This document shows, in pieces, positions 1 to 18,398 of a DNA stretch of 20,000 nt; the stretch's first letter is position 1, and each line of letters opens with the position of its first letter. The DNA comes from an uncultured virus (IMG/VR IMGVR_UViG_3300021087_000002) (taxonomy: Duplodnaviria; Heunggongvirae; Uroviricota; Caudoviricetes): the IMG/VR virus record IMGVR_UViG_3300021087_000002, one strand, 5' to 3'. The position numbers and the translations under genes are program-made. Under the pieces are notes generated by a model. The model was not told the DNA's origin, did no database searches, and was given only the letters and a program-made list of their open reading frames with translations.

Positions 1-52
1 ATGGAAGATGCAGAAGATTGCTGATAAACCTGTGGAAGAATGGAAGCTATGA
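1..52 (+). CDS. 3' end of an upstream gene (partial)
   Basis: Frame starting at nt 2 reads WKMQKIADKPVEEWKL to TGA at 50-52, just before the RBS of the next gene. Confidence 0.55.
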   Translation, partial: WKMQKIADKPVEEWKL

Positions 53-68
53 CGAAAAAGGAACTAAT

Positions 69-638
69 ATGATTAATGTTGAACTAGGCCATGTAAAGAA
101 TTTGGTAGAATTTTATGATGAGATCCGTAGTGGTCAAGAGGGAGAACATGGAGATGATTATTGTGGTCAACATGATGCTATCAAGTTCTATGCTAAAGAT
201 TGTGACAGTTATAGAGAACTAGGAACACACCAAGGTGGCACATTAGCCAATGCACTTCTCAGTGGTTTTGATTATGTAGAAGGTGTTGACATTGATATGC
301 ATCGTTATCGCAAATTCTGTCAACCCCATGCAGAACACTATGCACGAGAGAATGGCATTCAGTTAGTTATTAAAGAAGTTGATAGTGCAGGTTTGGGTGC
401 TGTGGGTAGACAAGTAGATATGCTGTTGATCGATAGTATTCACAAAGCCTACCATATGACAAAAGAATTAGACCTACATGCTCCTCTTGCTAGGAAGTAT
501 ATTGTAGCACACGACACAAACACAGTTCCAGAACTACAAGCTTGTCTTGAGAGGTTCTGCCAAAAGAACTCCGAGTGGAGCATCATTGAACGTGGAGTTG
601 TTAATGTTGGCTTTACGGTGTTACAGAAGAATGCCTAA
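69..638 (+). CDS. Class I SAM-dependent methyltransferase (Methyltransf_24-like)
   Basis: Motif I ELGTHQGGT, acidic GVDID, DMLLIDSIH and terminal HDT. Start moved to ATG 69 after AAGGA. Confidence 0.8.
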   Translation: MINVELGHVKNLVEFYDEIRSGQEGEHGDDYCGQHDAIKFYAKDCDSYRELGTHQGGTLANALLSGFDYVEGVDIDMHRYRKFCQPHAEHYARENGIQLVIKEVDSAGLGAVGRQVDMLLIDSIHKAYHMTKELDLHAPLARKYIVAHDTNTVPELQACLERFCQKNSEWSIIERGVVNVGFTVLQKNA

Positions 639-1305
639 TATAATATTACAACACTTCGATGGAGAGCTACGTGAACTAGATCTTCTATCTATGACAAACA
701 TTCAAAATTATGCAAAAGATGTTGGTGCAGACTATCAACTTGTCAAAGGCATGCCATTCCGTGATCATCTAACAGCACCTTGTCAGAAGGTGTTCATGAT
801 CGACGAACAGTATGATGATTATGATGATGTTCTAATGTTAGACATTGACATGTTTGTACCAAAGAATATGAATAAGAACATATTTGATGAAGTGGGTGTT
901 GGTTTATACAATCCTATTCAACAGAATTTACATGCCAAGTTGGTGAGACAACACTCTTTCCAAGGATCCATGGAAGCTCCTTATTGGGGTGGTGCTATCT
1001 ACAAGATGGATAGAGCATTACGTCAAAAGCTGAGATCTGGATTAGGTGGTAATGAGAATTGGATGAATGCGTACAATCAACCATATCAGTGGGAAGACGA
1101 AGGCATCTTTCATACACTTGCTTTTAGAACAGGTGTTAAGATATCCGATGATCAGTTCTTACATCCAAAGTGGTGCTATGACAACTATCTAGAATATCCA
1201 CAATACGCTGGAATGATCCATGTGCGTACAAAGATTACACCCACAGGACCTAAGCAAGAGAAGATCAAAAACTATAGAGCATTAGTGGAAAGGGGTATTT
1301 TATAA
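631..1305 (+). CDS. GT-A fold glycosyltransferase (GT34-like)
   Basis: NYAKDVGADY, DxD motif in VLMLDIDMF, EDEG motif, C-terminal His. ATG 631 overlaps the previous gene end. Confidence 0.7.
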   Translation: MPNIILQHFDGELRELDLLSMTNIQNYAKDVGADYQLVKGMPFRDHLTAPCQKVFMIDEQYDDYDDVLMLDIDMFVPKNMNKNIFDEVGVGLYNPIQQNLHAKLVRQHSFQGSMEAPYWGGAIYKMDRALRQKLRSGLGGNENWMNAYNQPYQWEDEGIFHTLAFRTGVKISDDQFLHPKWCYDNYLEYPQYAGMIHVRTKITPTGPKQEKIKNYRALVERGIL

Positions 1306-2000
1306 TGGAAGCCCTTGTTATTACCATAAAGGGTAATGAATTAAGTGAAACTGCCGCCGCTAACTGTATTGCATCTTCAGCTAAGTTGGATAATAAATTT
1401 AGAGTAAAGACCTTTGAAGCTACCACACCAGAAGATGTTGAAGAGTGGGTTAAGGCATACAAGCTTACATGGAATTGGCCTTGGGATGGTGAGATCCATG
1501 ACATGGCCTCTGGACTTAGGAAGGTGGCATATCAAACGGCTAACCGACATGCTCGTGTGGCATGTTCAATGAGTCATTTTAGATTATGGGATAGATGTTC
1601 TAGAAACAAATCGCCTATGCTTATACTAGAGCATGATGCAATATTTACAGACAAGATTAACGTTAAGACCTACCTAAACAAGGGATTTAATATCATAGGT
1701 ATTAATTCTCCACTAGGAGCAACACGTAAGTCACAACAATTCCATGATATAATACAGAACAGAAAAGAAGTTATACAACCAGTTCCCCATATAGATGGTT
1801 GGGGTGTGCCTCAAGGTATCGCTGGAAACAGTGCATATATACTAACACCAGATGGGGCTGATGATTTGCTGAGAGCATCCTATCAGTATGGTCTGTGGCC
1901 TAATGATGCTATAATGTGTAGACAGATGATAAAGCATATAGGTGTGACTAAGAAGTATTACACTACAATTCAACGTACTAGGAGTACGACTACGTTATGA
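1305..2000 (+). CDS. Glycosyltransferase family 25
   Basis: ACSMSHFRLW, LILEHDA, GNSAYILTPDGA and PND motifs. TAATG translational coupling. Confidence 0.85.
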   Translation: MEALVITIKGNELSETAAANCIASSAKLDNKFRVKTFEATTPEDVEEWVKAYKLTWNWPWDGEIHDMASGLRKVAYQTANRHARVACSMSHFRLWDRCSRNKSPMLILEHDAIFTDKINVKTYLNKGFNIIGINSPLGATRKSQQFHDIIQNRKEVIQPVPHIDGWGVPQGIAGNSAYILTPDGADDLLRASYQYGLWPNDAIMCRQMIKHIGVTKKYYTTIQRTRSTTTL

Positions 2001-2647
2001 GAGCATTTGTTATCACAATAAAAGATAATCCACAGAGTGTGGAGATGTCTGATCGTTGCATCAAATCATTTAAAAAGCATAATGATGATAGTATAGAAGC
2101 ATTTGATGCTATAACACCAGAAACAACTGAAGTGTTTTCTTTGGCACATTACCACGGAGTTCCTGTAAAGAACTTCTTAGAGAAATACTCTAGATATGAT
2201 AGATGTGTATCCGCATTCCTATCACATTTTCTTTTATGGAAGAAGTGTATTGAGCTAGACGAATCTATTATCATATTCGAACACGATGCTGTTGTTAAAG
2301 CACCCATTCCTAAGATGCCATTCAACGGACTTGTGAACATTGGAAAACCAAGCTATGGTAAATACCTCATACCTAACCTAGGTCTTGGTAAATTGGTTTC
2401 AAAACAATACTTACCCGGAGCACATGCGTATGCTATTACACCCAAGGGTGCTGAAGCTATCATTGCCGAGACAGTATTCAATGCACAACCAACAGACGTT
2501 TATCTTAACAATAGATTATTTCCATGGATTGAAGAGTACTACCCATGGCCTGTAGATTGTGAAGATAGTTTTACAACTATTCAGAATGAGACAGGTTGTT
2601 TAGCCAAACATAATTATGGAAACGGAGAAGACTATGGGATTATCTAG
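1997..2647 (+). CDS. Glycosyltransferase family 25 (paralogue)
   Basis: AFLSHFLLWKKC, IIFEHDA, GAHAYAITPKGA and PTD motifs. ATGA overlap. Confidence 0.85.
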   Translation: MRAFVITIKDNPQSVEMSDRCIKSFKKHNDDSIEAFDAITPETTEVFSLAHYHGVPVKNFLEKYSRYDRCVSAFLSHFLLWKKCIELDESIIIFEHDAVVKAPIPKMPFNGLVNIGKPSYGKYLIPNLGLGKLVSKQYLPGAHAYAITPKGAEAIIAETVFNAQPTDVYLNNRLFPWIEEYYPWPVDCEDSFTTIQNETGCLAKHNYGNGEDYGII

Positions 2648-3266
2648 TAAACAATTCAATAAACTTTATATAACAGGTTGTGATAAGAATACAGACTGGA
2701 TGCTACCTTGGTTCGAAGAGAACTTTACTCTACACAATCAAGATGCACAATTGGCTGTATATGAGTTCGATACATTCAGAGAGGATTTGGAAGGTTGGTT
2801 TAAGAAACCTGCAGCGATGATAGATGCGTCTCAGATTGCAGATCAGGTTGTTTGGATTGATACCGACTGCCACATCAAGGGCAATCTAGATGGGATCTTT
2901 AATCACATCACACCCAATAAACTTACTATGGCTATTGATCGTCCTTGGACTACACGCCGTTCTAATCGTGGAACTTGGTATAATAGTGGTGTTGTGGGCT
3001 TTGAAGGTGTTCCACCAGTACTATCCGAATGGGCTAGATACATTCAAGATGGCTTGACAAAAGAAGTTGGTGATCAGGAAGTATTGAACTGGATGTTAGG
3101 TGGGGATCCTATTAGAGAGATTACTCACATGAATACATTGCCACCTATGTACAATTTTCTACGCCTAGATATACAAGATGAGTACCCAGGATATGAGAGT
3201 GCTAAGGTTGTGCACTGGACAGGTGGTAAGGGTAAAGAAGTAATTAAAGAGATGATGAATGTCTGA
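2634..3266 (+). CDS. Nucleotide-diphospho-sugar transferase (GT8-like)
   Basis: WIDTDC (DxD), YNSGVV, GDQEVLN, YN and VVHWTG motifs. GGAG upstream of ATG 2634. Confidence 0.8.
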   Translation: MGLSSKQFNKLYITGCDKNTDWMLPWFEENFTLHNQDAQLAVYEFDTFREDLEGWFKKPAAMIDASQIADQVVWIDTDCHIKGNLDGIFNHITPNKLTMAIDRPWTTRRSNRGTWYNSGVVGFEGVPPVLSEWARYIQDGLTKEVGDQEVLNWMLGGDPIREITHMNTLPPMYNFLRLDIQDEYPGYESAKVVHWTGGKGKEVIKEMMNV

Positions 3267-3858
3267 AGATATTGTTAATGTTATTGGTAATGGTCAGTCC
3301 GCTGGATATTTCAAGGAAGATCAAAAGGGCATTCGCCTAACGTGTAATCTACCACCATTTGAAGTGAAGAATGTATTTGCAACTATTATGGTTGACTTCA
3401 AGATGATGAGAGCAATCCAAGAAGGAAGTGTAACAGTTCCTGGTCATTGGATACTTGGTAACAGACCTAAGATCCACATGGAACAAAACTCTAGCTTTTA
3501 CATGAAGCATGCCTCACAGATACGAGGCTTCTATCTAGAAGTACCACCATATGCACGTAATGCCACAGATTTTAATTGTGGACATGTAGCAACTCACTAT
3601 GGTGTGAGTAGATGGAAACCAAAAGTATGTAACATGTTTGGATTTAACTCTATCTTTGACTTTGACATGACAAGTGCTACAGACTTCTATCTCGAATCAG
3701 ATCGTGGTGATATAAACAATAATAGATTAGCAAACAATTGGAGAGGTATTTGGCCTCAGTTGTTTAATGAATTTCCAGATACAGAATTTAGGCTACACCA
3801 CAAGCATGCTAATGCTAAAATGCAGTGTCCCAAAAATGTCACTATTATTACTCCTTGA
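3259..3858 (+). CDS. Putative glycosyltransferase of the sialyltransferase/Maf-like Rossmann fold
   Basis: VIGNGQS, xCN, NCGHVA and MFGF motifs resemble GT29/GT42/Maf-type enzymes. Last gene of the glycosyltransferase operon. Confidence 0.55.
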   Translation: MSEDIVNVIGNGQSAGYFKEDQKGIRLTCNLPPFEVKNVFATIMVDFKMMRAIQEGSVTVPGHWILGNRPKIHMEQNSSFYMKHASQIRGFYLEVPPYARNATDFNCGHVATHYGVSRWKPKVCNMFGFNSIFDFDMTSATDFYLESDRGDINNNRLANNWRGIWPQLFNEFPDTEFRLHHKHANAKMQCPKNVTIITP

Positions 3859-3919: not shown

Positions 3920-4006
3920 ATGACCGATTCAGACCAATCCTTCGATAACAAGAAGGATGACCCTCACGATGACTGGTCAAAACACCCAATCCCCCAACCT
4001 AGATAG
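3920..4006 (+). CDS. Possible 28-aa acidic micro-peptide (MTDSDQSFDNKKDDPHDDWSKHPIPQPR)
   Basis: First ATG after the dual promoter, preceded by AAGGA. Overlaps the next ORF in another frame. Confidence 0.35.
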   Translation: MTDSDQSFDNKKDDPHDDWSKHPIPQPR

Positions 4007-4280
4007 CATATACAAAAAGTACTCAGATGTAACCGACAGGAACGACAACATGTTAATCCCTTGGTATCTGATGGCATGTTATGCATACTACGTTGACGAT
4101 GAGCCAATACTTGAAGATGTTATCTTTGATAGGCTAACTAAGAAACTACTTAAAGTGTTCGATGACGTTGAGCACATGCATAAACATTATATAACAAAGG
4201 ATATGCTAGAAGCAGGAACATACCTAGGAGAATATCCGTCTAGAATAAAGTATGTTGTAGAAGATATTAAAACAACATAA
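3957..4280 (+). CDS. Stand-alone NAD+-dependent DNA ligase domain Ia-like protein (Nlig-Ia)
   Basis: YAYYVDDEPILEDVIFDRL matches the LigA Ia motif YYxxDxPxxxDxxYD. No adenylation domain. Start uncertain. Confidence 0.7.
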   Translation: MTLTMTGQNTQSPNLDSIYKKYSDVTDRNDNMLIPWYLMACYAYYVDDEPILEDVIFDRLTKKLLKVFDDVEHMHKHYITKDMLEAGTYLGEYPSRIKYVVEDIKTT

Positions 4281-4504: not shown

Positions 4505-4999
4505 ATGAATGATGATAAATTAGGCTACTTGGCTATTGGTGCCGCCGCTATACTAATTGCTTTTACTGCGACAAGTGCAAAGGCAAACAATGCAACGCCA
4601 ATTAACGGTACTATTCAAGATTATTATAAAGTTGTACAAGACAGTGAACCATACACAAAGAAAGAGTGTGTGAATGTAAACGTTCCAGTATATGGTAATG
4701 TTACACAAGAAGGAGATGCCGCAGGTGGAGCCTTGCTTGGTATGATCCTTGGTGGTCTTGTTGGTAAAGGTGTTACAGGTGACGATAAAGGTGCCGCCGC
4801 AGGAGCTATCTTTGGTGGTCTTGTTGGTGCCGATAAAGGTGCTAAACCAAAATCTGGACAGGTTGTCACAGGATACCGAACTGAGAACCGTTGCGATTAC
4901 GTAACTTATTATCGTACCATTGAGCGTACTGAGTATGATTACTCAATCATTAATTGGAAAATTGACGGTGTTACTTACACAACTGAATTTGTAAAATAA
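4505..4999 (+). CDS. Glycine-zipper 2TM (YcfJ-like) exported/membrane protein
   Basis: Signal peptide ending AKA, glycine zipper GGALLGMILGGLVG...GAAAGAIFGGLVG, two Cys, AAGGAG RBS. Confidence 0.8.
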   Translation: MNDDKLGYLAIGAAAILIAFTATSAKANNATPINGTIQDYYKVVQDSEPYTKKECVNVNVPVYGNVTQEGDAAGGALLGMILGGLVGKGVTGDDKGAAAGAIFGGLVGADKGAKPKSGQVVTGYRTENRCDYVTYYRTIERTEYDYSIINWKIDGVTYTTEFVK

Positions 5000-5631
5000 T
5001 GAGCGTCACGGAGTATACAGTAGCTCCGATAACCATACAGGAAGCCACACCATTTGTAGAGAATTGGCACTACTCCAAGAATACAAATGGTTTGGCTACA
5101 CGATATTGTTTTGGACTGTTTAGAGGATCCGAAATGATTGGTTGTATGATTTACGCCTACTTAGGTATGGCGAGTGTTTGGAAGAAGTATGGTGAAGTAG
5201 AGACAGACGTAGTAGAACTAAGGAGACTATGCTGTATTGACGATACTCCCAAGAACACTGAAAGCTACTTTATAGCGAAAACTATTAAGTGGTTGAAGGC
5301 AGAGACTGATTGTAAAGTAGTAGTGAGTTATGCAGATACCATGCAAGGTCACGTTGGAACTATATACCATGCATCTAACTTCTATCATCTAGGCATGACA
5401 GCCAAGGGTAGATCGATAAAGATTAAAGGTAATAATCGTCTCTATCATGAGAAGACTATTAGGACATACTATCAACCTGTGAACGGAGAAAGACGTTTGA
5501 AACCATATGCTCAGAAGATCAAAGAGCAGTTGGAGAATGGTGAAGCAGAGTATGTCCATAGTGAAGGTAAACACATATTCGTCTATCCTTTGAATAAAAA
5601 AGAGAGACGAAAGTATAGGAAGTTAATATGA
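4999..5631 (+). CDS. mom: Mom-like DNA adenine-modification protein (GNAT fold)
   Basis: WHYS, ELRRL, KNTESYFI and VSYADxxxGHVGTIYHASNF are the conserved blocks of phage Mu Mom homologues. Confidence 0.85.
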   Translation: MSVTEYTVAPITIQEATPFVENWHYSKNTNGLATRYCFGLFRGSEMIGCMIYAYLGMASVWKKYGEVETDVVELRRLCCIDDTPKNTESYFIAKTIKWLKAETDCKVVVSYADTMQGHVGTIYHASNFYHLGMTAKGRSIKIKGNNRLYHEKTIRTYYQPVNGERRLKPYAQKIKEQLENGEAEYVHSEGKHIFVYPLNKKERRKYRKLI

Positions 5632-5918
5632 CAAGTTTTATTATGGATTGGTGGAATTTAGTGATGGATCATGAAAGAAATCCATTGTCTAACATCAAAG
5701 ATTTGAGAGTACGTCATCTCGTTATGCAAATACTTGCATGGATGTGGTGTATCGTATTCACGGCAATGACAGGTACATGGATGTACTTGGGTATCAATAT
5801 TCTGTTTCACGCATTGCTATTGTGTGGGATCTTTATAACAGTATCGGTGTTCGAAGCCGCTAAACGTAAACCGCAGATCTTTTATACACTGCGTGGTGAA
5901 GGTGGAGAACACGACTAG
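5628..5918 (+). CDS. Small two-TM membrane protein
   Basis: Two hydrophobic stretches (LVMQILAWMWCIVF; LGINILFHALLLCGIFITVSVF). ATGA coupling. Confidence 0.7.
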   Translation: MTSFIMDWWNLVMDHERNPLSNIKDLRVRHLVMQILAWMWCIVFTAMTGTWMYLGINILFHALLLCGIFITVSVFEAAKRKPQIFYTLRGEGGEHD

Positions 5919-5961
5919 GACGTTCTGGGTAGCACCAGATAATATGGGTTAGCAAATCCCA

Positions 5962-6110
5962 TATGATGAGAAGTGATGTTGCAGTCACAACAAAAGGCTC
6001 GATGGAAGTATCTCGGCACGAGTTTGCCGTTAGCGAGATAGAGCGGAGTTATACCAAAGGATATTAAACGTACTACAATATCTGACGTTGAGAACTCTTC
6101 TCGCATACCA
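5962..6110 (+). ncRNA. Putative structured non-coding RNA ending in CCA
   Basis: Terminal helix TATG(A)TGAGAAG / CTTCTCGCATA followed by CCA (6108-6110), several internal hairpins, lies 8 nt upstream of a tRNA. Confidence 0.55.
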
Positions 6111-6118
6111 CAGATTTA

Positions 6119-6195
6119 GTTTCCTTAGCTCAGTTGGATAGAGCAAGTGCCTTCTAAGCACTAGGTCATAGGTTCGAATCCTATAGGGAACACCA
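6119..6195 (+). tRNA. trnR: tRNA-Arg (anticodon TCT)
   Basis: Full cloverleaf: GTTTCCT/AGGGAAC acceptor, GCTC/GAGC D arm, AGTGC-CTTCTAA-GCACT anticodon arm, ATAGG-TTCGAAT-CCTAT T arm, encoded CCA. Confidence 0.97.
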
Positions 6196-6206
6196 AACTA
6201 GAAGGA

Positions 6207-6740
6207 ATGGTTCATTTGACAAGCCTAGATATGCTAAAGAGGACAGGAACGAATGCTGAGAGTGATGAATGTTATACTCCATCAGATCAGATCATTCCTC
6301 TTCTTAAATATTTAGATAAGGATAAGACTTACTATGAAGCAACTTCTGGAATCTCTTCTAACATACTTGACGGAATGGTTAAATTCGGTTATAATGTGGT
6401 TGGAAGTGGGGGAAGAGACTTTTTTGAATGCAATTCTGATGACGTGTTTGATGGGATTATTACTAACCCACCTTATAGTCTAAAGGATAAGTTCATTGAA
6501 CACTGCTATTCGTTAGGGAAACCATTTGCGTTATTCCTACCTGTAGCATCTTTCCAAGGTGGTAAACGTGGACAGATGTTCATGGACTATGGTATGTCAT
6601 GTTTAGTCTACAATAATAGAGTAGACTTCACAGGTGGTGGTGCACCACATTTTGGTAACGCTTGGTTTATGCATGGGATCCTACCACCCAACACGATATA
6701 TTGGGCTAATAACCCAAAGATGAGAGGAAAGCGAAAATGA
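6207..6740 (+). CDS. Small DNA amino-methyltransferase (N6-adenine type)
   Basis: SDECYTP, DFF, catalytic IITNPPYS, LFLP and RVDF motifs. Confidence 0.8.
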   Translation: MVHLTSLDMLKRTGTNAESDECYTPSDQIIPLLKYLDKDKTYYEATSGISSNILDGMVKFGYNVVGSGGRDFFECNSDDVFDGIITNPPYSLKDKFIEHCYSLGKPFALFLPVASFQGGKRGQMFMDYGMSCLVYNNRVDFTGGGAPHFGNAWFMHGILPPNTIYWANNPKMRGKRK

Positions 6741-7798
6741 AGGTAACAGTAGAACGTGATAAGATCACAGATGAGATCAGCGAGATCTTCGACTATGAGT
6801 TTGACGGAACATCTACGTTCCATCCTCATGAGATTAATTCATTAGATCGTGAAACCGTTCTATCTGATTTTGGTATTGGTTTAATTGTGGGACCTTCGGG
6901 ATCTGGCAAGACTACTTTACTGAAAGAGTTTGGTGAAGAGTATGAACCTTATTGGTTTGATAACAAATCTATTGCTTCTCATTTCGATGACATCGATGAC
7001 GTACAGGACAGACTAGGTGCTGTTGGATTTAACTCTGTACCGTCTTGGATGCGTCCCTATCATGTACTATCTAATGGTGAACAGTTTAGAGCTAGGTTAG
7101 CTCGACAGTTAGACAGCAACATTGTTGTTGATGAGTTCACATCTGTTATCGACAGAGATGTTGCCAAGAGTTGTTCTAATGCTATCTCACGATATGTTAA
7201 GAGACACAACTTAAAGAACATTGTATTTTCATCTTGTCATTATGACATTATTGAGTGGTTGCAACCAGATTGGGTATTTGATACTCAGACTGGTAAGCTG
7301 ACCACAAGGGGGTATCAAAGGCCAGATATCGTTCTGGAAATTTTACCTTGTACCAGAGACATCTGGACGCACTTCAGCGACCACCACTATCTCGACCACA
7401 ACATCCACAAAGGTGCATCTTGTTGGATCGCAACATGGAACGGCAGACTTGTCGGATTTCTTTCTAGCCTAAGCATGCCTTCGGGCAGTCTTAAGAATGC
7501 ATGGAGAGCACATAGAGTTGTGATACTTCCAGAGTTCCAAGGGCTAGGTATTGGTGCCAGACTTATGGATGCCCTAGGTGATATGCACGTTGCAGAAGGT
7601 AAAAGATTCTTTCTCAAAACAAGTCACCCTAGACTAGGCGAATACTGTAATAGAAATGATGCTTGGAAAGGCACATCAAAGAACGGTATTGCCAGACCTG
7701 ACTATAAAACTAATTCTAGTACCTATGGCGGATTTGCTGAAGGACTACAAAAGCATATGAATAGAATATGCTATTCCCATGAATATATCGGAAAATAG
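6737..7798 (+). CDS. ABC-family ATPase fused to a GNAT acetyltransferase (COG2401-like)
   Basis: Walker A GPSGSGKTT, signature LSNGE, Walker B VVDEF, H-loop SSCH. C-terminal HHYL and RVVILPEFQGLGIG acetyl-CoA motif. Confidence 0.9.
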   Translation: MKVTVERDKITDEISEIFDYEFDGTSTFHPHEINSLDRETVLSDFGIGLIVGPSGSGKTTLLKEFGEEYEPYWFDNKSIASHFDDIDDVQDRLGAVGFNSVPSWMRPYHVLSNGEQFRARLARQLDSNIVVDEFTSVIDRDVAKSCSNAISRYVKRHNLKNIVFSSCHYDIIEWLQPDWVFDTQTGKLTTRGYQRPDIVLEILPCTRDIWTHFSDHHYLDHNIHKGASCWIATWNGRLVGFLSSLSMPSGSLKNAWRAHRVVILPEFQGLGIGARLMDALGDMHVAEGKRFFLKTSHPRLGEYCNRNDAWKGTSKNGIARPDYKTNSSTYGGFAEGLQKHMNRICYSHEYIGK

Positions 7799-9806: not shown

Positions 9807-10730
9807 TTGAGAAAGTTTTTAAATTATATGGCGGAAGCCGAAGTAATAGACGAGGAGTATATCGAAGCACACTTTGATATTCTTCTTGAAAAGCTTATTA
9901 CATTTGGTGGTAAGGCATATCCAAAGTTTGGCAACGTTGTAATCATGGCGGGCGGAGCGGGATCTGGTAAAGGTTTTGTTAAGGATAATCTAGTTGGACT
10001 TGAAGGTAAAGTCTTTGACGTGGATGCTCTTAAGACTGCCGCCGCCAAAGCACCTAAGATTATTGCTAAGGTTAAGGCTGAGACAGGCCAAGACTTGGCT
10101 AAGATCGGTGGTAACCTCAAGAAGGCAAGTAATGTAAGTGCCATGCACGATATCATCTCAAACCTTCTAAACCTACCAGATAAGAAACAGGCGGCATTCT
10201 TTGCTTCTGTATTTTCATCTGCCCCTGATCGTAAGCCTAATATTATTTTTGATGTTACGCTAAAGGATCTACAGAAATTAAATAACATTACACGTCAAGT
10301 ATCTGCCCTAGGGTATGATAAGAAAAGCATTCACATTGTGTGGGTAGTTAATGATATTGAGGTTGCTAAGGCACAGAACAAGAAGAGGGATCGTGTGGTT
10401 CCTACTGACATTCTTGTCAACACTCATAGAGGTGCTTCTGCCACCATGAATGATATTGTGAACATGGGTAACGGTCTTAAGAAGTATATGGACGGAGATA
10501 TCGTGTTTGCATTCAATAAGGTTGGTGTAGACAGTGAACTCGTTAAGTCTGGCAAGAGCGGTAAAAAGATTGGCATGAAGGGTAAGACCGAGGGTGGTCA
10601 ATATCTAAAGGATGCTGAATACTTCTATGTTAAGCGTAAGGGTGCACGAGCTATTCCTGTAGCCAAGTTGGATAAACAGATACGTATGAAGATCTCCAAA
10701 TATGTACCAAAGGGAGTGGAATGGAACTGA
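9807..10730 (+). CDS. P-loop kinase of the zeta-toxin/AAA_33-like family, late-expressed
   Basis: Walker A GGAGSGKG, DVD, Walker B IIFDVT, lid NKKRDRVVP. GGAG RBS with TTG start. Confidence 0.75.
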   Translation: MRKFLNYMAEAEVIDEEYIEAHFDILLEKLITFGGKAYPKFGNVVIMAGGAGSGKGFVKDNLVGLEGKVFDVDALKTAAAKAPKIIAKVKAETGQDLAKIGGNLKKASNVSAMHDIISNLLNLPDKKQAAFFASVFSSAPDRKPNIIFDVTLKDLQKLNNITRQVSALGYDKKSIHIVWVVNDIEVAKAQNKKRDRVVPTDILVNTHRGASATMNDIVNMGNGLKKYMDGDIVFAFNKVGVDSELVKSGKSGKKIGMKGKTEGGQYLKDAEYFYVKRKGARAIPVAKLDKQIRMKISKYVPKGVEWN

Positions 10731-12639: not shown

Positions 12640-13263
12640 ATGTTAACGATGTCGATCATCGGTGGGCTTATATGGAGTCAGATCATATCGCATTTTGGTG
12701 CGAGTATTCTGCTACACAGACATTATTGCCATAATCAGTTTAAGGTGCCACCATGGTTTGAGACTATGGGATTGGCTATGCTTATGGTAGCAGTCATTAG
12801 GTCACCCATTGGTTGGATTGCTTCTCATAGGATGCACCACACCCACTCTGATACGGATAAGGATCCCCATGCACCCCAACACGTGGGCTATTGGAAGGTT
12901 CTATTTACGATATGGACTATACCACGTATCCCATCAAAGTATGCCAAAGATCTTTATCAAAACAAAAAGCTTGTGTTCTGCCATAAGCATTGGTTTAAGA
13001 TAGTTGCATGTGTGTGGGTAGTGTCATATCTGATATCCCCATACTTCTTTATAGGGTTTGCTCTAATCCCATTCATATTCGCTAAGGTGGGCTTCGGTCT
13101 ATTAAACACTGTTGCACATGCCAATGGTGCTTTAAACGTTCCTTGGTTGAATTTTTTTATTGCAGGTGAAGGGTATCACAAGAATCATCATGATAACTGG
13201 AAAAGAGTACGCCTACATAAGTATGACACAGGCGGATGGATTGCAGAGAGATTGTTTAAATGA
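12640..13263 (+). CDS. Membrane fatty-acid desaturase (delta-9/DesC-like)
   Basis: Three His boxes (HRHYCH; HRMHH with SD..DPH; EGYHKNHH), NTVAH and hydrophobic segments. Confidence 0.9.
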   Translation: MLTMSIIGGLIWSQIISHFGASILLHRHYCHNQFKVPPWFETMGLAMLMVAVIRSPIGWIASHRMHHTHSDTDKDPHAPQHVGYWKVLFTIWTIPRIPSKYAKDLYQNKKLVFCHKHWFKIVACVWVVSYLISPYFFIGFALIPFIFAKVGFGLLNTVAHANGALNVPWLNFFIAGEGYHKNHHDNWKRVRLHKYDTGGWIAERLFK

Positions 13264-13862
13264 AAAAGAACCAACTACCAAGTATAATGAAGCTGAACGT
13301 AGATATAGACTTATCTGCATTAAGGAAAGCTACTGATGATCTAGCATCTAAGTTTGTGGATGTACGAACTGCTAATCCTGGGCTTTGTATGAACCACGAA
13401 GAGTTGGTTAAGGATGTCTATGATAACTTTGAACAGATAAACCTCACAACACCAAGTGAGATCTTGCCACACACGGCTTCTATTAAAGAACGATTGAAGC
13501 GTAGGGAAGAGCATTTGTATAATGTACCAACGAGTGAATATACTGATAGTTACTTCGAAAAGGTGGTAACACAGTGTAAGGCTCCTGCATCTCGTATACG
13601 AATCACAAAGCTTGCTCCATCAAAGACTATTCCATTTCATGTGGACTATGATGTATCCTATGCGGTACGTTGTATTGTACCCATCTATGGTGATAATAAC
13701 GCCGTTAATCTGTTTAGACGAGATGGTAAGCTAGAGGCATATAACCTTAACTGTGGAACTGCCTATTTTTTAAACATCGGATACCCCCATGCCGTAGTCA
13801 ATATGAGTGACAAACCTAGAATTGCCTTAATGTTTAGTTTGGATGGTACAGATGACTTGTGA
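13260..13862 (+). CDS. 2OG-Fe(II) oxygenase (Asp/Asn beta-hydroxylase-like cupin)
   Basis: RIRITKL, HVD, distal PHAVVN, 2OG-binding R in PRIAL. Confidence 0.85.
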   Translation: MKKNQLPSIMKLNVDIDLSALRKATDDLASKFVDVRTANPGLCMNHEELVKDVYDNFEQINLTTPSEILPHTASIKERLKRREEHLYNVPTSEYTDSYFEKVVTQCKAPASRIRITKLAPSKTIPFHVDYDVSYAVRCIVPIYGDNNAVNLFRRDGKLEAYNLNCGTAYFLNIGYPHAVVNMSDKPRIALMFSLDGTDDL

Positions 13863-14640
13863 TAACCAACCAGAATATCCTAGATCCCATATGTGGCCTG
13901 TTGCACGAGAAGTGCAAATAAAAGGATATAAAATTTTTCATGAACTAGAGCATACCGAGCAATCTTACATTGACTACATGAAAGGCTTTGGTGAACTAGA
14001 GAGACATGAACTGTTTATGAACTCTAAGGAAGTACCAGAACTATTCTATGTAACAGACAGACGCACTGAGAGTGGTGATAAGATAGGTATGTTTGGTGGT
14101 GGAGAGCTAGGATGGCACTCTAATGGAAACTCTAGGCATAAGATAGACAAGATCCTTATCAGTTTATACTGTGTGGACGGAGATCCTAACACCACTCTAT
14201 CGGTGTGTAACACGTCACAACCCTTCTATGATCTATCTGATGAGGATCAAGAGTACTTTAAGAACATCACTATACGTCTTAAGTTTAAGAATAACACAAT
14301 GTATGAGCTAGATGAAGATGATCCCGAACTAGAGTTTATGAGTAAGAACAAAGGATCTATCATACCATTGGTAGGAAGACATCCCCACACGGACAAGTAT
14401 TATTTTTATTTTCCTTACCACTTTATCTGTAGAGCATGGCATGGTAAGACACGGATCGATCATGAAGAGCTTATAGAGAGACTTAAGCCTATTATCTTTA
14501 AGAGCAAGTATCAGATCCATCATGTGTTTCAAAAGGGTGATATGTTACTAATGGATCAGTTGACAACACTCCATAGGAGAACTCCTGTGATGGGTGACCG
14601 TATGTTATGGAGAGCCGCTGGTGACTATTCAAAGGTATAG
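13852..14640 (+). CDS. TauD/TfdA-family dioxygenase (HxN variant)
   Basis: WHSNG, T in NTT, PLVGRHP, GDMLLMDQLTTLHRR, RMLWR. Confidence 0.85.
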   Translation: MTCDNQPEYPRSHMWPVAREVQIKGYKIFHELEHTEQSYIDYMKGFGELERHELFMNSKEVPELFYVTDRRTESGDKIGMFGGGELGWHSNGNSRHKIDKILISLYCVDGDPNTTLSVCNTSQPFYDLSDEDQEYFKNITIRLKFKNNTMYELDEDDPELEFMSKNKGSIIPLVGRHPHTDKYYFYFPYHFICRAWHGKTRIDHEELIERLKPIIFKSKYQIHHVFQKGDMLLMDQLTTLHRRTPVMGDRMLWRAAGDYSKV

Positions 14641-15526
14641 AAGACTATTAAGAGCAAACCCTTGGGTAGAAGTACCTTGCCATAAAGACGTTTTAGTTTT
14701 GCTTTCAGAACAAAAGGTATCTGATACATACTACAGACGTGGAAGCGGAGAAGCTACCGAAGACCTAAACATAGCCGAATCACTTCATAGAAATTGGGTA
14801 AAGGATATGGTAGATCTATCCGACTTTCCTTATTGCTATGTTACTAATGGTGCTACTGATGCTATACACTACTGGAGACTGATGCATGGTAAGGAATGGC
14901 AGAAGTTTGAGGGTGAATACGAATATCCTGATATGATTGGTATTGAGGGTCGAAGCATGTGTGATGTCGAGGGACAGCACATGAAGAACCATAGAGCCGC
15001 CTTAAATGCATCTGTAGATCCTAACCAAACTCTATATGTATCCAACCCATCTAGTGCTGATGGTAATATCTTCAGTCCCAATATGCACAAATGGAAAAAC
15101 CAACCCCCTGTTATTCTTGACTGCACATACGTATCATCCACACCTATTAAAAAAATAGAAGTACCGTCTAATACTGAGCAAATCTTTTTCTCGTTCAGTA
15201 AGGGCTTTGGTGTGGTTGGTCAAAGGATTGGATTTGTATACACAAAGAAACCCCATTCTATACTACACACCCTTAAAGAGTTTGAGAACTGGAACTATGG
15301 GTCGGTAAAGACTGCTTCTCTTCTTATGTCTAACTTTAAGGTTGATGAGATGTACAACAGGCACAGGGATAAACAGCTATCAATATGTGACGAATACAAC
15401 CTAACACCTTCGGATTGTTTCTATTTGGCTACAACATATGATGATTACTATGAGAAACGCAGACGTATGAGATGGAATGACAGTGCCAGGATATGCATCA
15501 CCCCTTTATTTGACCACTATATATGA
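14621..15526 (+). CDS. PLP-dependent enzyme, aminotransferase class I/II fold
   Basis: TNGATDAI, SNP, ILDCTY, SFSK (PLP lysine) followed by GQRIG, terminal R. GTG start 8 nt after GGAG. Confidence 0.85.
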   Translation: MTIQRYRRLLRANPWVEVPCHKDVLVLLSEQKVSDTYYRRGSGEATEDLNIAESLHRNWVKDMVDLSDFPYCYVTNGATDAIHYWRLMHGKEWQKFEGEYEYPDMIGIEGRSMCDVEGQHMKNHRAALNASVDPNQTLYVSNPSSADGNIFSPNMHKWKNQPPVILDCTYVSSTPIKKIEVPSNTEQIFFSFSKGFGVVGQRIGFVYTKKPHSILHTLKEFENWNYGSVKTASLLMSNFKVDEMYNRHRDKQLSICDEYNLTPSDCFYLATTYDDYYEKRRRMRWNDSARICITPLFDHYI

Positions 15527-16404
15527 CGAAGGAGTTTGATATGGATAAGCAAATATTAGATTATACAGACGAGGAATACATAGATCTCGTTAAGAAGATT
15601 GTTGCTGATGGGTCTACAGTACTACATGATCAGAACCTGACACGTCAAGAACTAGCTAAAGTATGTGCTAGGATGGGTAAGGTAGAAGAGCTAGATTATT
15701 TTATGAACCCCAAGGACAGCCCACAGATTTCTATTGTGTCTGGTAAAGTTGTTGATGGTAAGGCTATCGGGATGTTCGGTCCTACTGAGTTAGAGTGGCA
15801 CGCCAACGGAACTGGTAGATATAATTTTGATGAGATATGTGTAGGTCTATACTGTAAGAAAGGATGTGTTGACACCGTGCTTTCTATTGTAGACCAAAGA
15901 GCGGCATTCCAAGAACTATCCGAAGAAGATAAGGAATACTACCGAGGGATCTATATCAATCTTAATAACGAGAGAGGTCGTGCACAGATCTGGCGTGATG
16001 ATGGTGTTTACTCTAAGGCATATAATGCTTCTGGTGAGAATACATTTAGAACAGGACAGGAACATTACAAGGAAACGATTGATCGTAGACCTCTTGTGGC
16101 ACGTCACCCTGTTGATGGTTCTGAATATTTTTATCCTATGTTCATCTATCTGTACAAAGCATTCTATGAGGATGGTAGCGAGGTAGAAGACTTCCAAGCG
16201 TTTCGAGATAAGCTATATGATACCATTACACGAAGTAAGTATATGTTCCACCATGTATTCCGTGATGGTGATCTGTTGTTCATGGATCAATTGCTGACAT
16301 CCCATAGACGTTCTGCCGTAAAGGATAAGGACAGAGAGCTATGGAGAACTGCATTTGATTACTCTAACACTGTAGAAGACTATACTCCTGTGGTGTTCAC
16401 GTGA
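15523..16404 (+). CDS. TauD/TfdA-family dioxygenase (HxN variant, paralogue)
   Basis: WHANG, PLVARHP, GDLLFMDQLLTSHRR, RELWR. Confidence 0.85.
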   Translation: MTKEFDMDKQILDYTDEEYIDLVKKIVADGSTVLHDQNLTRQELAKVCARMGKVEELDYFMNPKDSPQISIVSGKVVDGKAIGMFGPTELEWHANGTGRYNFDEICVGLYCKKGCVDTVLSIVDQRAAFQELSEEDKEYYRGIYINLNNERGRAQIWRDDGVYSKAYNASGENTFRTGQEHYKETIDRRPLVARHPVDGSEYFYPMFIYLYKAFYEDGSEVEDFQAFRDKLYDTITRSKYMFHHVFRDGDLLFMDQLLTSHRRSAVKDKDRELWRTAFDYSNTVEDYTPVVFT

Positions 16405-17078
16405 AACAGAAGTCCACAGGCAGACCTATACCATGGCCTAAGATCCATAAGCTAGATGCCTTGGCGTTGGGTGCCAATGAACAAGTACCTGTGCCTCTTA
16501 AAGAAGACTATCTCATGGAAGATATGCACTATCTAGACACAGATGAGGCATATCCACTGTTCGAGAAACAAGCTAGGATCATTAAGAAGGCTGGTTATAA
16601 AAAAATATTAGACGTGGGATGCAGACACGGTCCGATTAACAAAATACTACACAAAAATTTAAAGTATACTGACTATGAATACTTTGGGTTTGATACGAGT
16701 CAAGAGCCTATTGATATCGCTATTGAGACGTGGAAAGACTATGATAACATCAACTATGAGTGTACGTCATGGGAAGGTTTCTCTACTGACTTTGAACCTG
16801 ATGTAATCGTCTTCAGTGGTGTTCTACTCTATATAAAGGACGATGAAGAACGTGCTGACTTCTTTGATGACTTTATGTTTAGGCATCGGTGCAAAAACGC
16901 TATTATCCAAGAGCCATATCACTTCCAAAGACATTGGGACGATAGGCTTATCCTAAATACAATAACAAACGGTGGATTGGACTTCCTTCAAGAAGACTAT
17001 GAGGTGGACGAGCACTACTTAGATCTGCCTATATTTGCTGGTAAGAGAGTATTATACGATGTCACTCCTAAGTCTTAG
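16401..17078 (+). CDS. Class I SAM-dependent methyltransferase
   Basis: ILDVGCRHG, GFDTS and DVIVFSGVLLY motifs. GTGA overlap. Confidence 0.85.
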   Translation: MKQKSTGRPIPWPKIHKLDALALGANEQVPVPLKEDYLMEDMHYLDTDEAYPLFEKQARIIKKAGYKKILDVGCRHGPINKILHKNLKYTDYEYFGFDTSQEPIDIAIETWKDYDNINYECTSWEGFSTDFEPDVIVFSGVLLYIKDDEERADFFDDFMFRHRCKNAIIQEPYHFQRHWDDRLILNTITNGGLDFLQEDYEVDEHYLDLPIFAGKRVLYDVTPKS

Positions 17079-17670
17079 TACAAGCGCATGTCCTGATAGT
17101 CTTAATCATAGGGGTCTGATGGTACTCAATGAGTGTGTAGACCTAGGTGTTATAGATTGTTTATGTAACTATAACCTTCCTGTTGTGAATGTAAATGGTA
17201 TGGACAGTGATGTACCACCCGAAGTCAAACGTCTCTTAGATCATATGTTTAAGTTTGATAAATTTATTTTTGCCATACCTGAGTTCACTGGAATGATGAG
17301 TGCATCGACTAAGAACCTTCTTGATTGGTTTGTTGTTGCAACGAATATGAACCTTGATCATGGTAAAGGCTATCCATGGTCTGATAAGCATGTGATGCTG
17401 TTTACCTTTACTCCCAGTGGATCTGAGGGTGGGAAGAGGCATATGGACGGTACTAAGGCTATCTTTAAGAAGCTTGGGGCTAATGTAATACATACCGAGG
17501 TGTTTAACTATGGGTGGGAGACGGTTATCCCAGGTAATACTGAGCCGTTTAAAGAAGCCGCCGATAGGATAAATAATTTTCTAAGCTATAAACCTAACAG
17601 TAAGAATAGTTTTAAAAACAAATACGAAGAATGGAACAGACAATGGCTAAAGACAGAGGTGGATTACTGA
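17059..17670 (+). CDS. NAD(P)H-dependent FMN reductase (flavodoxin-like)
   Basis: S...DSLN N-terminal loop, FAIPEFTGMMSASTKNLLDW, WSDK and GG motifs. Confidence 0.85.
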   Translation: MSLLSLSTSACPDSLNHRGLMVLNECVDLGVIDCLCNYNLPVVNVNGMDSDVPPEVKRLLDHMFKFDKFIFAIPEFTGMMSASTKNLLDWFVVATNMNLDHGKGYPWSDKHVMLFTFTPSGSEGGKRHMDGTKAIFKKLGANVIHTEVFNYGWETVIPGNTEPFKEAADRINNFLSYKPNSKNSFKNKYEEWNRQWLKTEVDY

Positions 17671-18398
17671 TAGATGCTGGTGATTTCGATGACGAGATCG
17701 ATGGCCTTTGTGAGTACATTAACATACCAAGCTACAGAGATCTCCTATTGTCTATGTGGGAACAGATCGTTGACAAGGAGACAAACCTAGGTAAGGGAGA
17801 AGCACGTGCATTGGTTGGTTGTCATAGTCATGATTATCACAATGTATTTGGTAAGACACGATGGCAATCCTATGTCCTTGGAGATCTAGCAGATCAAGAC
17901 AATGGTAATGCCGCTATCTTTGAACCCTTTATGAAGATCATGAGAAAGGTACATCCCCACTTTCAAATGAGATCCACAGGCTTTAACTTCTCTGATGATG
18001 TAAACAAAGAGCTATATGTCCATACAGATCTAGATCCTAAGCTAGAACACCCCAATTATTTTAATTTTATTCTACCTGTTGCTGGCAGATCTCGTATAGA
18101 TTACTATGAAACCAGACCAGAAGAGATTTGGTTGCCTGAGAGGAACAGTCGTGACGAGTATTACTATCACGAATTTCGTCCTAAGCTCAAGTATGACCTA
18201 GAGTTTAATAAAGAACGACAGATGGGACACATACATGTGAACGAAGAGAGTGGGTGTGTGATGCTAGATACTGATGTTCTACACGGTGTACAGGTACAGG
18301 AAGCACCAAGACTGGCATTCTGTGTACGATTTAATAATATCCCTGCCCATATAGACTTTCATGCGTTTAAGAAGCATGCCGAGAAGGTTCTTAATTGA
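17643..18398 (+). CDS. Cupin-type 2OG-Fe(II) oxygenase-like protein
   Basis: VHTD, FNFILPV, LDTDVLHGV, PRLAFCVRF. Confidence 0.75.
   Translation: MAKDRGGLLIDAGDFDDEIDGLCEYINIPSYRDLLLSMWEQIVDKETNLGKGEARALVGCHSHDYHNVFGKTRWQSYVLGDLADQDNGNAAIFEPFMKIMRKVHPHFQMRSTGFNFSDDVNKELYVHTDLDPKLEHPNYFNFILPVAGRSRIDYYETRPEEIWLPERNSRDEYYYHEFRPKLKYDLEFNKERQMGHIHVNEESGCVMLDTDVLHGVQVQEAPRLAFCVRFNNIPAHIDFHAFKKHAEKVLN

Follow-up and report, generated by a model that had tools for sequence, protein, structure and literature searches.

The ABC-ATPase/GNAT fusion gene described here carries a dual-coding signal, and is constrained in sequence, at the joint between its two domains. The explanation that best accounts for the locus, and which we consider probable, is that three separately mobile genes lie side by side, one of them an in-frame fusion gene with a programmed +1 shift that would yield a short ATPase. 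We infer the ribosomal shift itself, its rate, the role of the short form and the substrates of all the enzymes.

Organisation of the locus

The window, meaning the whole stretch of DNA analysed, comprises 20,000 nt of one strand, within which the locus at 4999-7798 was examined. All of its features lie on the + strand:

4999..5631, +: Mom-family GNAT, 210 aa, a predicted aminoacyl-tRNA-dependent DNA adenine modifier (profile, sequence and fold matches)
5628..5918, +: hydrophobic ORF, 96 aa, overlapping the mom stop (ORF call; family searches gave no match)
~5918..6112, + (inferred from co-orientation with the tRNAs): structured non-coding RNA of ~190 nt with approximate ends (covariation; an Rfam search gave no match)
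6119..6195, +: tRNA-Arg, anticodon UCU (ARAGORN; Rfam RF00005, 71.7 bits)
6207..6740, +: orphan amino-methyltransferase of the NPPY type, small (177 aa), predicted to form m6A or m4C (phrog_799, atlas clusters, conserved motifs)
6737..7798, +: ABC-ATPase/GNAT fusion, 353 aa (ABC_tran and Acetyltransf_1, phrog_11143)
7307..7322, +: predicted programmed +1 frameshift site (SD, spacer codon, P-site, A-site, then C)
7317..7472, +: +1 reading frame over the GNAT start, 51 codons plus stop, the predicted tail of a ~244-aa short ATPase

An earlier note on this DNA had placed a Mom homologue, an NPPY methyltransferase and an ABC-GNAT fusion within 2.8 kb around RNA genes. This is borne out by three intact ORFs, by family searches, and by the presence of both tRNA-Arg(UCU) and the structured RNA. 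Its description of the fusion as translationally coupled agrees with the 4 nt (ATGA) shared with the methyltransferase ORF, an overlap confined to the window's own clade. That account missed the 96-aa hydrophobic ORF and the predicted recoding site where the two domains of the fusion join. For the structured RNA, 30 of 43 pattern matches continued to align outside the pattern, and two-sided change was seen at 11 of 30 consensus pairs (16 sequences).

The locus was reproduced by contigs of four runs (two RNA libraries and two DNA), and the domain joint was covered in three of the four with no listed indel, in contigs that drop rare variants; the listed X16 contig pieces leave 7275-7441 uncovered. 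The RNA-library contigs contain the locus but are no demonstration of transcription, and contigs cannot reveal a trans-frame product. A promoter scan returned 15 sites, against 16.2 expected by chance, and PADLOC gave only weak P-loop or NPPY matches.

A conserved, predicted +1 recoding signal at the domain joint

At the joint, an SD (7307-7312) is followed by a 3-nt spacer codon, a CAA P-site codon (7316-7318), an AGG A-site codon (7319-7321) and then C, such that GGC is the C-ending codon read in the new frame. This is the geometry of prfB, but with the sense codon AGG where prfB has a stop. The letters of the SD and spacer are identical to those of E. coli prfB, and pairing with the anti-SD is -11.1 kcal/mol in the window versus -9.9 kcal/mol for prfB. 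A 3-nt SD spacing marks +1 shifts, according to the part of a 2016 review used here (PMC5009743). The in-frame SD pattern recurs in 127 of 137 homolog clusters and is lacking from 10. The A-site is a sense codon in 127/127, namely CGG, AGG, CAA or CGA in most homologs, and the next base is C in most.

Several features set this joint apart. Firstly, on counts anchored on amino acids only, codon choice was strongly skewed: the second SD codon was AGG or GGG in 115/115 (14.6 expected), a P-site Leu was CTT in 58/58 (8.3 expected) and a P-site Val was GTT in 29/29 (7.3 expected), this P-site set having been picked after inspection of the data, while an A-site Arg was CGG or AGG in 83/92 (18.4 expected). 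Codon bias was also present at E133 and D170, two columns distant from the joint. Secondly, on a tree of the 127 clusters from which the joint was left out, 41 amino-acid changes and no synonymous ones were counted for the P-site codon, compared with 58 changes of codon where the residue is an invariant Pro. Thirdly, the second and third P-site bases were the same (an XYY form) in 117/127, and the new-frame A-site codon ended in C in 122/127. Fourthly, the +1 frame was open as far as the HHYL motif in 126 of the 127 clusters (68.1 expected), and in 70/70 at the joint versus 16-43 of about 70 in other gene windows. HHYL itself was encoded as CAT-CAC-TAT in 113/118, 111/127 and 122/127 respectively, which in the +1 frame reads ITI. 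Fifthly, in four split Firmicute genes and in Oenococcus (L347), the ATPase ORF ends in III or ITI and the GNAT lies in the -1 frame; by default, such split genes would yield the same short ATPase-plus-tail product. As the +1 frame has a stop at the spacer in 7/127, its earliest point of entry is the P-site.

These features suggest a mechanism in which the 16S rRNA tail would pair with the internal SD, 3 nt ahead of the P-site codon, and the ribosome would stall at a slow sense codon in the A-site, AGG in the window. The peptidyl-tRNA could then re-pair one base downstream, and a C-ending codon, GGC in the window, would be read in the +1 frame. A single gene would thereby give both the 353-aa enzyme and, much as dnaX yields both tau and gamma, a ~244-aa ATPase whose tail is read in the +1 frame; the long and short forms most likely join as a mixed ATPase dimer or oligomer in which GNAT domains are fewer than ATPase domains.

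The signal is not uniform. CAA is a minority P-site codon (7/127, against 58 CTT and 29 GTT), and its move to AAA keeps two of three pairs with a mismatch at the first position; hence shifting in the window may be weak. Re-pairing would likewise be poor for the CAT and GAT P-sites of 8/127. The window's tail reads TTI instead of ITI and extends to 51 codons. Tail length is not fixed: about half of the clusters have 25-27 aa, many others have 51-60 aa, and in one cluster the +1 frame shuts after 10 codons. An atlas search with the +1 tail gave no match. All six Bacteroidota-linked homologs lack the SD and keep the codon pair and tail, some host labels of homologs being MAG bins. However, as Bacteroidia prfB usually retains its SD, according to the part of PMC10798248 used here, any argument from these hosts is weakened. 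The Vibrio phage L354 also lacks the SD, though its host is expected to use SDs.

Alternative readings of the joint

The joint could instead be a translational pause, in which an internal SD, rare Arg codons and Pro allow the ATPase to fold before the GNAT while the frame is unchanged. The motif does sit exactly at the domain boundary, the A-site favours rare Arg codons, with Arg-Pro coming next in many homologs, and some P-site codons re-pair poorly in the +1 frame. However, pausing would leave unexplained the open +1 frame, the fixed HHYL codons 25 codons downstream, the XYY P-site with its C-ending new A-site codon, and the split genes with the same short product, and we regard it as improbable. 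It is hardly credible that the motif forms an RNA hairpin, binds a protein or starts the translation of a small, separate protein that overlaps the fusion: the end of the SD can pair with downstream Arg-Pro codons in many homologs and the +1 frame is open, but folding z-scores had a median of -0.95 and fell below -2 in only 12/70, 3' structure was absent (median -0.25), no ATG, GTG or TTG stood at initiation distance (3-12 nt after the SD) in 122/127, and the frame of the motif was always the same. Internal initiation and hairpin readings were rejected on these scans.

Two further routes to a second product were considered and rejected for the window. Its joint has no canonical -1 heptamer, and no constraint holds the -1 frame open (41 of 127 clusters versus 30.5 expected). 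For transcript slippage, there is a run of only five Gs, and the contigs, which drop rare variants, list no indel.

A bolder extension of the programmed +1 shift is that, in phages of many host phyla, SD-driven shifting at a hungry sense codon sets the ratio of short ATPase to full DNA-acylating enzyme, and that in the window AGG is read by the neighbouring viral tRNA-Arg(UCU), tuning both the shift and base modification. We consider this doubtful. A tRNA-Arg(UCU) was found nearby in 5 of the 18 clusters with an AGG or AGA A-site versus none of 12 others. The specific link was rejected as support: all five fall within the wider clade of the window, L007 has the tRNA and a CGG A-site, and AGG, at 44 of the window's 284 Arg codons, is no rare codon there. 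As of the 2016 review, in the part used here, no productive starvation-specific use of hungry-codon shifting was known, and whether any viral tRNA bears on frameshifting was an open question (PMC5009743).

Predicted activities of the three enzymes

Taking the three enzymes separately, a DNA base is the best guess for the target of each. The fusion combines an ABC-fold ATPase, which matches ABC NBDs and has Walker A (52-59), a signature-like LSNGE (111-115), Walker B DE (132-133), a D-loop and H168, with a GNAT domain at ~198-353 containing HHYL (216-219) and an acyl-CoA-type loop, QGLGIG (268-273). It matches phrog_11143 (E 8e-115), a family that numbers at least 6,850 proteins when clustered at 90% and in which JGI names of homologs read ABC-type ATPase/GNAT. 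It shares the architecture of this known family and is 50.7% identical over 99% to the example QAX98348.1; acylation of a DNA base is the family's predicted activity (PMC7824862 section 3.4.7, citing Iyer 2013), and the part of that description used here does not mention recoding. The window differs from the family in having no ParB-like partner. Prophage copies are placed after a ParB-like gene (present in 66/80 genome loci), often ahead of terminase or portal, and lytic-phage copies stand among replication genes.

HHYL and the Mom WHYS motif, between which the earlier note drew a parallel, are in register in a profile-profile alignment, but this alignment is weak (probability 27.6, E 0.00065, 58 columns) and neither the fusion-GNAT HMM nor the Mom HMM picks up the other. 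The fusion keeps QGxGxG where Mom's acyl-CoA loop is replaced, so its donor is probably unlike Mom's.

The target may instead be tRNA, in the manner of TmcA, or a host or phage protein, a tentative alternative with a modest chance of being right and compatible with the frameshift. An ATPase joined to an acyl-CoA-type GNAT is the plan of TmcA, and TmcA and NAT10 contain a helicase-type ATPase and tRNA-binding domains, whereas the ATPase here has an ABC fold. TmcA acetylates a tRNA cytidine (PMC13219725). In L014 and L015 the fusion gene lies inside arrays of 21-25 tRNAs, and a tRNA occurs within the DNA examined at 15 of 80 viral loci, but none is nearby at 65/80 viral loci and 75/80 genome loci, and the neighbouring genes are those for ParB-like, terminase, primase, helicase and polymerase proteins. 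The GNAT fold matches generic acyl-CoA GNATs, including protein N-acetyltransferases (Z 12-14, with ties), and RimI and N-terminal acetyltransferases are among the top matches, but these ties are at 8-14% identity and are no guide to function. Neither TmcA nor Mu Mom is among the best 50 fold matches of the fusion, a protein of only 353 aa, but such an absence carries no weight against either. The TmcA-like role that the earlier note drew from the adjacent tRNA, which is an Arg tRNA, is weakly supported.

The Mom-family protein scores 141.8 bits against PF25680 (cut-off 27.1) and E 3e-61 against phrog_1384. Among solved structures, Mu Mom (PDB 8bv8) is its best match both in sequence, at E 5e-10, and in fold, where it reaches Z 18.9 (rmsd 2.9, 166 aligned) and the next row Z 14.4. 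The two share the replacement of the acyl-CoA loop by a DDxPxNxES segment and six of nine residues whose mutation sharply cut Mu activity, including the catalytic R111 and S124 (PMC13219725). Mu H58, Y59, R111, S124, D149 and Y159 correspond to H24, Y25, R76, S89, D113 and Y123, of which D113 is present in 87/88 aligned sequences and the others in 88/88. By contrast, the window protein is 24% identical in the structural alignment, lies in a lytic T4-like context and has M115, Q14 and L148 for Mu R151, W48 and W181, at columns that vary across its subfamily. R151 is essential in Mu Mom and W48 is a dimer residue (PMC13219725). On this sequence evidence, the absence of the three lowers the likelihood of a product identical to that of Mu, not that of a Mom-like action. 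By analogy with Mu Mom, the protein most likely modifies adenine in dsDNA at N6, with an amino acid taken from a charged tRNA. The account of Mu chemistry in the earlier note, a conversion of adenine to N6-carbamoylmethyladenine that blocks restriction, was incomplete in omitting that glycine is supplied by charged tRNA-Gly (PMC13219725), a supply for which no ATPase partner is needed. The window has a single tRNA, for Arg and not for Gly, and a Mom homolog without R151 is a modest lead towards another aminoacyl donor.

The third protein is probably an orphan SAM-dependent DNA amino-methyltransferase. It matches phrog_799 (E 2e-28) and atlas clusters at 0.96-0.97, in one of which 32% of the members carry EcoRI_methylase. 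Among 51 distinct homologs, NPPY is present in at least 95%, and the conserved motifs are ECYTP, the variant motif I YYEATSG and, after it, the catalytic TNPPYS. Database names disagree, between DNA MTase, tRNA MTase and nucleotidyltransferase.

Independent passengers in a variable region

Linkage was counted over 155 fusion homolog clusters at 90% identity, 106 of them flanked by 1.2 kb at either end. Within that distance of the fusion, Mom was found in 3/155 clusters, the methyltransferase in 3/155 and a ParB-like gene in 41/155. Conversely, 103 Mom loci contained the fusion in 6 and the methyltransferase in 3, and 80 methyltransferase loci contained the fusion in 6 and Mom in 3, all of the window's clade. 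Among sister phages at 86-92%, L005 and L006 lack Mom, L004 and L008 lack both Mom and the methyltransferase within the DNA examined, and L007 and L012 have the genes reordered. A conserved three-gene operon was rejected, as linkage is not kept and sister phages lose or reorder the genes. These are independent passengers in a variable, tRNA-containing region of a marine T4-like phage, together by circumstance, and the three-gene cluster itself is ordinary.

The earlier note had joined the three into one coupled, possibly ATP-dependent hypermodification pathway providing layered base modification. The genes are co-oriented within 2.8 kb, L012 has all three in ~5 kb in a different order, and the L020 clade and L100 each have Mom next to the fusion independently. 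However, gene-neighbourhood analysis finds each pairing to be rare, and Mu Mom acts alone with charged tRNA (PMC13219725), making such a pathway highly improbable.

Relation to known recoding systems

The site at the fusion joint would act like that of prfB, rather than being an autoregulatory site of the prfB type. In the parts of PMC12421855 and PMC5009743 used here, prfB has an AGGGGG or GGAGG SD, a 3-nt spacer, CTT as the commonest P-site codon and C after the A-site, all as in the fusion family. In contrast to prfB, the fusion has a sense codon in place of UGA, a full-length default product with the shift leading to the short form, and varied P-site codons (CTT, GTT, GAA, CAA). It also occurs in phage genes, including those of actinobacterial prophages, whose hosts are described in that part of PMC12421855 as lacking the prfB shift motif. 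The yeast Ty1/ABP140 site CUU_AGG_C similarly has a slow Arg A-site followed by C, with GGC in the new frame (PMC5009743, in part), and CTT-AGG-C itself occurs in 8/127 clusters, whereas the fusion would employ a bacterial ribosome with an SD stimulator and the window has CAA in its P-site.

The two products of one gene recall dnaX, an AAA+ clamp loader gene that relies on -1 shifting, transcript slippage or proteolysis; the fusion differs in its ABC ATPase, its predicted +1 shift and its tail of 25-60 aa under selection. A long and a short ATPase come from the single gene dnaX, namely tau and gamma, as would be the case for the fusion, and lineages reach both products by different recoding routes or with a reversed default (PMC5009743, in the part used here).

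A literature search found no report of an SD-driven +1 shift in this family, and frameshifts that leave an intact ORF escape annotation and broken-gene scans. The motif is present in 127/137 clusters of a phage family that is very common, and its range runs from marine phages to the prophages of actinobacteria. In designing tests of ABC-GNAT proteins, codon-optimised genes would delete the short subunit and might be inactive. If the programmed shift is true, this would be a natural bacterial +1 site in which the stimulator of prfB operates with a sense codon.

Three intact enzyme genes in a variable island

The three enzyme ORFs named in the earlier note are intact, and are arranged with the neighbouring features as follows (all window genes being co-oriented, at ~39% G+C):

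4999-5631, + strand, Mom-family GNAT
5918-6112, + strand coordinates, conserved, covarying structured RNA of ~190 nt
6207-6740, + strand, NPPY methyltransferase ORF, METHYLTRANSFERASE
6737-7798, + strand, ABC-ATPase/GNAT fusion (ABC-GNAT) of 353 aa
7307-7322, + strand, ATPase/GNAT joint of the fusion, with a predicted +1 site: SD, spacer, P-site CAA, A-site AGG, C
between the enzyme ORFs, tRNA-Arg(UCU)
between the enzyme ORFs, hydrophobic ORF of 96 aa

The gaps between the enzyme ORFs also include ~200 non-coding bases. DNA identical to the window is carried by two IMG/VR contigs and is present in 20 of 24 listed runs, labelled marine, seawater or viral metagenome, with close relatives found on contigs of up to 160 kb. 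Among the runs, 14 carry a flag as possible sources.

The earlier note's proposal of a single coupled three-enzyme locus is not supported when related loci are compared. Within 1.2 kb of the fusion, among its 155 clusters at 90%, a Mom gene and a methyltransferase each occur in only three, and a ParB-like gene in 41. In a redundant set of loci with flanks of up to 6 kb, the 80 viral fusion loci include nine with Mom, six with the methyltransferase and three with both, two of these being identical to the window and one reordered; conversely, the fusion is present in 6/103 Mom loci, and 80 methyltransferase loci have the fusion in six and Mom in three. Two sister phages (L005, L006) retain window-like flanks but lack Mom at the site, and one contig of sequencing run X9 fuses 4785 to 6126. 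The cluster is a variable island of already known families, rather than a pathway. The only hint of affinity between families is that the Mom-fusion pairing arose independently twice, in the L020 clade and L100. In L020 (7032-7955; also L021, L023, L024 and L029), a divergent, longer Mom-family gene (307 aa) directly follows ABC-GNAT and precedes a T4-like DNA polymerase.

The structured RNA matches no Rfam family. Of 43 pattern matches, 30 are homologous, mostly adjoining tRNAs, with two-sided changes in 11/30 pairs; these homologs occur in phage tRNA clusters, differ in the length of their 3' third, and are mobile independently of the three enzymes.

Elsewhere in the window, 18-3858 encodes a methyltransferase-like ORF, two GT25 and one GT8-like glycosyltransferases and other ORFs without assignment, possibly for virion or DNA glycosylation; this region is also kept in L005 and L006. 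Positions 12640-18949 resemble a small cluster for biosynthesis or modification, a metabolic-type run with fatty-acid desaturase-like, Asp/Asn hydroxylase-like and aminotransferase-like ORFs, two TauD dioxygenases, a SAM methyltransferase and an FMN reductase. The ORF at 9807-10730 resembles P-loop kinases of the Zeta_toxin family, and 3957-4280 has a weak match, just below the Pfam cut-off, to the NAD+-binding domain of a ligase, here standing alone.

Enzyme families and likely substrates

The Mom homolog matches PF25680 (141.8 bits), and its structure model (pLDDT 91.7) best fits Mu Mom (8bv8, Z 18.9; next match 14.4). Mu residues H58, Y59, R111, S124 and Y159 are invariant across 88 aligned sequences, and D149 is retained in 87; however, the essential R151 is replaced by Met in the window, at a position variable across the subfamily, and neither W48 nor W181 is kept. 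It should nevertheless work like Mom, although the base it makes may differ. According to PMC13219725, Mu Mom moves glycine off Gly-tRNA-Gly and onto N6 of adenine in dsDNA, and the product then rearranges on the base. Homologs match 300 isolate phage records, and hence are common. Two Mom-family genes are adjacent in L210 and L224, while in L109 (10766-11153) and L110 a permuted (two-piece) tmRNA is called close to mom relatives, a weak hint, given the distribution of such RNAs, of an alphaproteobacterial host.

The methyltransferase, a predicted orphan amino-methyltransferase, matches phrog_799. Its atlas clusters are viral, and part of one bears the label EcoRI_methylase; across 51 distinct homologs TNPPYS is kept, as is motif I in a variant form.

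In the fusion, possibly of the COG2401 type, every ABC motif and the QGxGxG loop are invariant across 88 sequences. Its model (pLDDT 92.3) separates an ABC domain (1-193) from a GNAT domain (196-353) whose fold matches are ties among acyl-CoA GNATs. Its HHYL motif, which the earlier note likened to the WHYS of Mom, aligns with the latter only weakly. PMC7824862 reports a GNAT with an ABC ATPase as its partner, for which acylation of a DNA base is predicted; the example, QAX98348.1, is 50.7% identical to the fusion (hit H1), and is recorded from an Aeromonas phage, whereas the paper names pT24. Of 80 genome loci, 66 have a ParB-like gene no more than 3 kb from the fusion, nearly always upstream (6/6 scanned cluster members being ParB-like), terminase or portal genes are often downstream, and lytic copies adjoin primase, helicase or polymerase genes. 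In a Porphyromonas phage the fusion comes after the tail genes, at the right end of the genome, the place corresponding to mom in Mu. These contexts make DNA the favoured candidate substrate. A formyltransferase gene after the fusion in Bcepmuvirus phiE255 and in this phage (L351:3556-4170; L355:3002-3475) may point to the acyl donor.

Other copies are found within large arrays of tRNA genes, flanked by tRNA-Leu(UAG) and tRNA-Ser(GCU) (L014:5906-7185, with an ARAGORN tRNA-SeC(UCA) call; L015:5526-7161, with a CUA-anticodon tRNA), or immediately before uroporphyrinogen decarboxylase and coproporphyrinogen oxidase genes in sister phages (L012:7690-8670; L010:8094-8894). The gene is broken by an in-frame TGA within the GNAT domain in the pT24 record (L350:3247), and by a TAG just before the SD in a Nonomuraea prophage (L320, near 6459).

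Codon constraint at the domain joint

In an initial set of 40 distinct segments, the joint Arg-Gly is coded AGG-GGG in all 40. The wider fusion survey gathered 333 loci, of which 297 could be parsed: 275 fused, 18 unresolved, and 4 split, their GNAT being in -1. Clustering at 90% gave 155 clusters; 137 remained once the 4 split ones and 14 lacking a recognised HHYL were set aside. In 127 of these, an in-frame NG(G/A)-RGG lies 24-29 codons ahead of HHYL. The layout is that of E. coli prfB, whose +1 site, as described in PMC12421855, has an SD set 3 nt before the shift codon, which is followed by a slow codon and then C; PMC5009743 gives SD spacings of 3 nt for +1 shifts and 9-14 nt for -1.

Expected codon counts come from the usage of the individual gene. 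Firstly, with only amino acids as the anchor, the second SD codon is AGG/GGG in 115/115 (14.6 expected), and A-site Arg is CGG/AGG in 83/92 (18.4 expected). Secondly, P-site Leu is always CTT (58/58) and Val GTT (29/29), with a single codon per amino acid in all 119 Leu, Val, Glu, Gln, His and Asp cases (34.5 expected), a set picked after inspection of the data. Even where GC3 exceeds 0.7 (n=20), GTT/CTT occupies the P-site in 18 clusters, despite forming 7-8% of their codon families. Thirdly, in a scan of 344 columns across 78 clusters at 70% (median chi2/df 1.14), the ten most biased columns comprise five at the joint, three at HHY, and E133 and D170, where palindrome avoidance may be responsible. 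Fourthly, when the joint was left out of tree building, at least 41 amino-acid changes mapped to the P-site codon and 21 to the second SD codon, neither with any synonymous change, against 26-66 codon changes at invariant control residues. Hence the constraint was imposed repeatedly, rather than inherited once.

A start codon after the SD is absent in 122/127 clusters, and no hairpin signal was found at the joint. Seven of the 127 have a +1 stop at the spacer, meaning the frame could not be entered before the P-site. Pairing with the anti-SD, assessed in 16 hand-picked named loci and the window (the counts omit L269, which was skipped, and L334, whose register was misassigned although its SD is visible), was -8.0 to -10.9 kcal/mol in six loci from other hosts, and absent (-3.3 to +1.3 kcal/mol) in all six Bacteroidota-linked loci and one Verrucomicrobiota bin, which still retain the tail; one Vibrio phage also lacked pairing. 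PMC10798248 reports that the anti-SD is sequestered on the ribosomes of Bacteroidia and that SDs are missing in Verrucomicrobiales, but also that an SD is usually retained in prfB of Bacteroidia, so this host-linked loss is supporting rather than decisive. The AGG in the A-site could be decoded by the nearby tRNA-Arg(UCU), but the two are associated in one clade only.

A conserved second reading frame

Between the P-site and HHYL, stops are absent from the +1 frame in 126/127 clusters (68.1 expected, sd 4.9), compared with 41 for the -1 frame (30.5 expected). With clustering at 70%, the +1 frame is open in 70/70, versus 16-43 of ~70 for other gene windows. The HHYL codons are almost fixed, such that +1 reads ITI, and 68/127 tails end at the HHYL Leu (52.7 expected). 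Where the gene is split, in Streptococcus, Lactococcus, Oenococcus and Thomasclavelia phages, the ATPase ORF terminates in III or ITI at the corresponding position, GNAT being in -1 relative to it, and T-run joints in four loci (L265, L397, L402, L410) lead into the same tail. Hence three architectures converge on one product pair. In the window, a +1 shift after Gln194 would add 50 residues, giving a 244 aa product.

A predicted programmed shift and its role

At the sequence level, these comparisons strongly support the prediction of a hidden +1 site in ABC-GNAT. A programmed shift very probably exists in the family, and is probable, with somewhat less assurance, in the window, whose CAA site is weaker. 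No report of recoding in this family was found in the literature searched, nor in excerpts of PMC7261163, PMC12839542, PMC10853773, PMC10732093 and 10.64898/2026.10.19.760177. Alternatively, the +1 tail might be a degradation tail merely lowering enzyme output. The preferred role of the short form, by analogy with dnaX, is instead in a mixed oligomer, into which the short and long forms would assemble.
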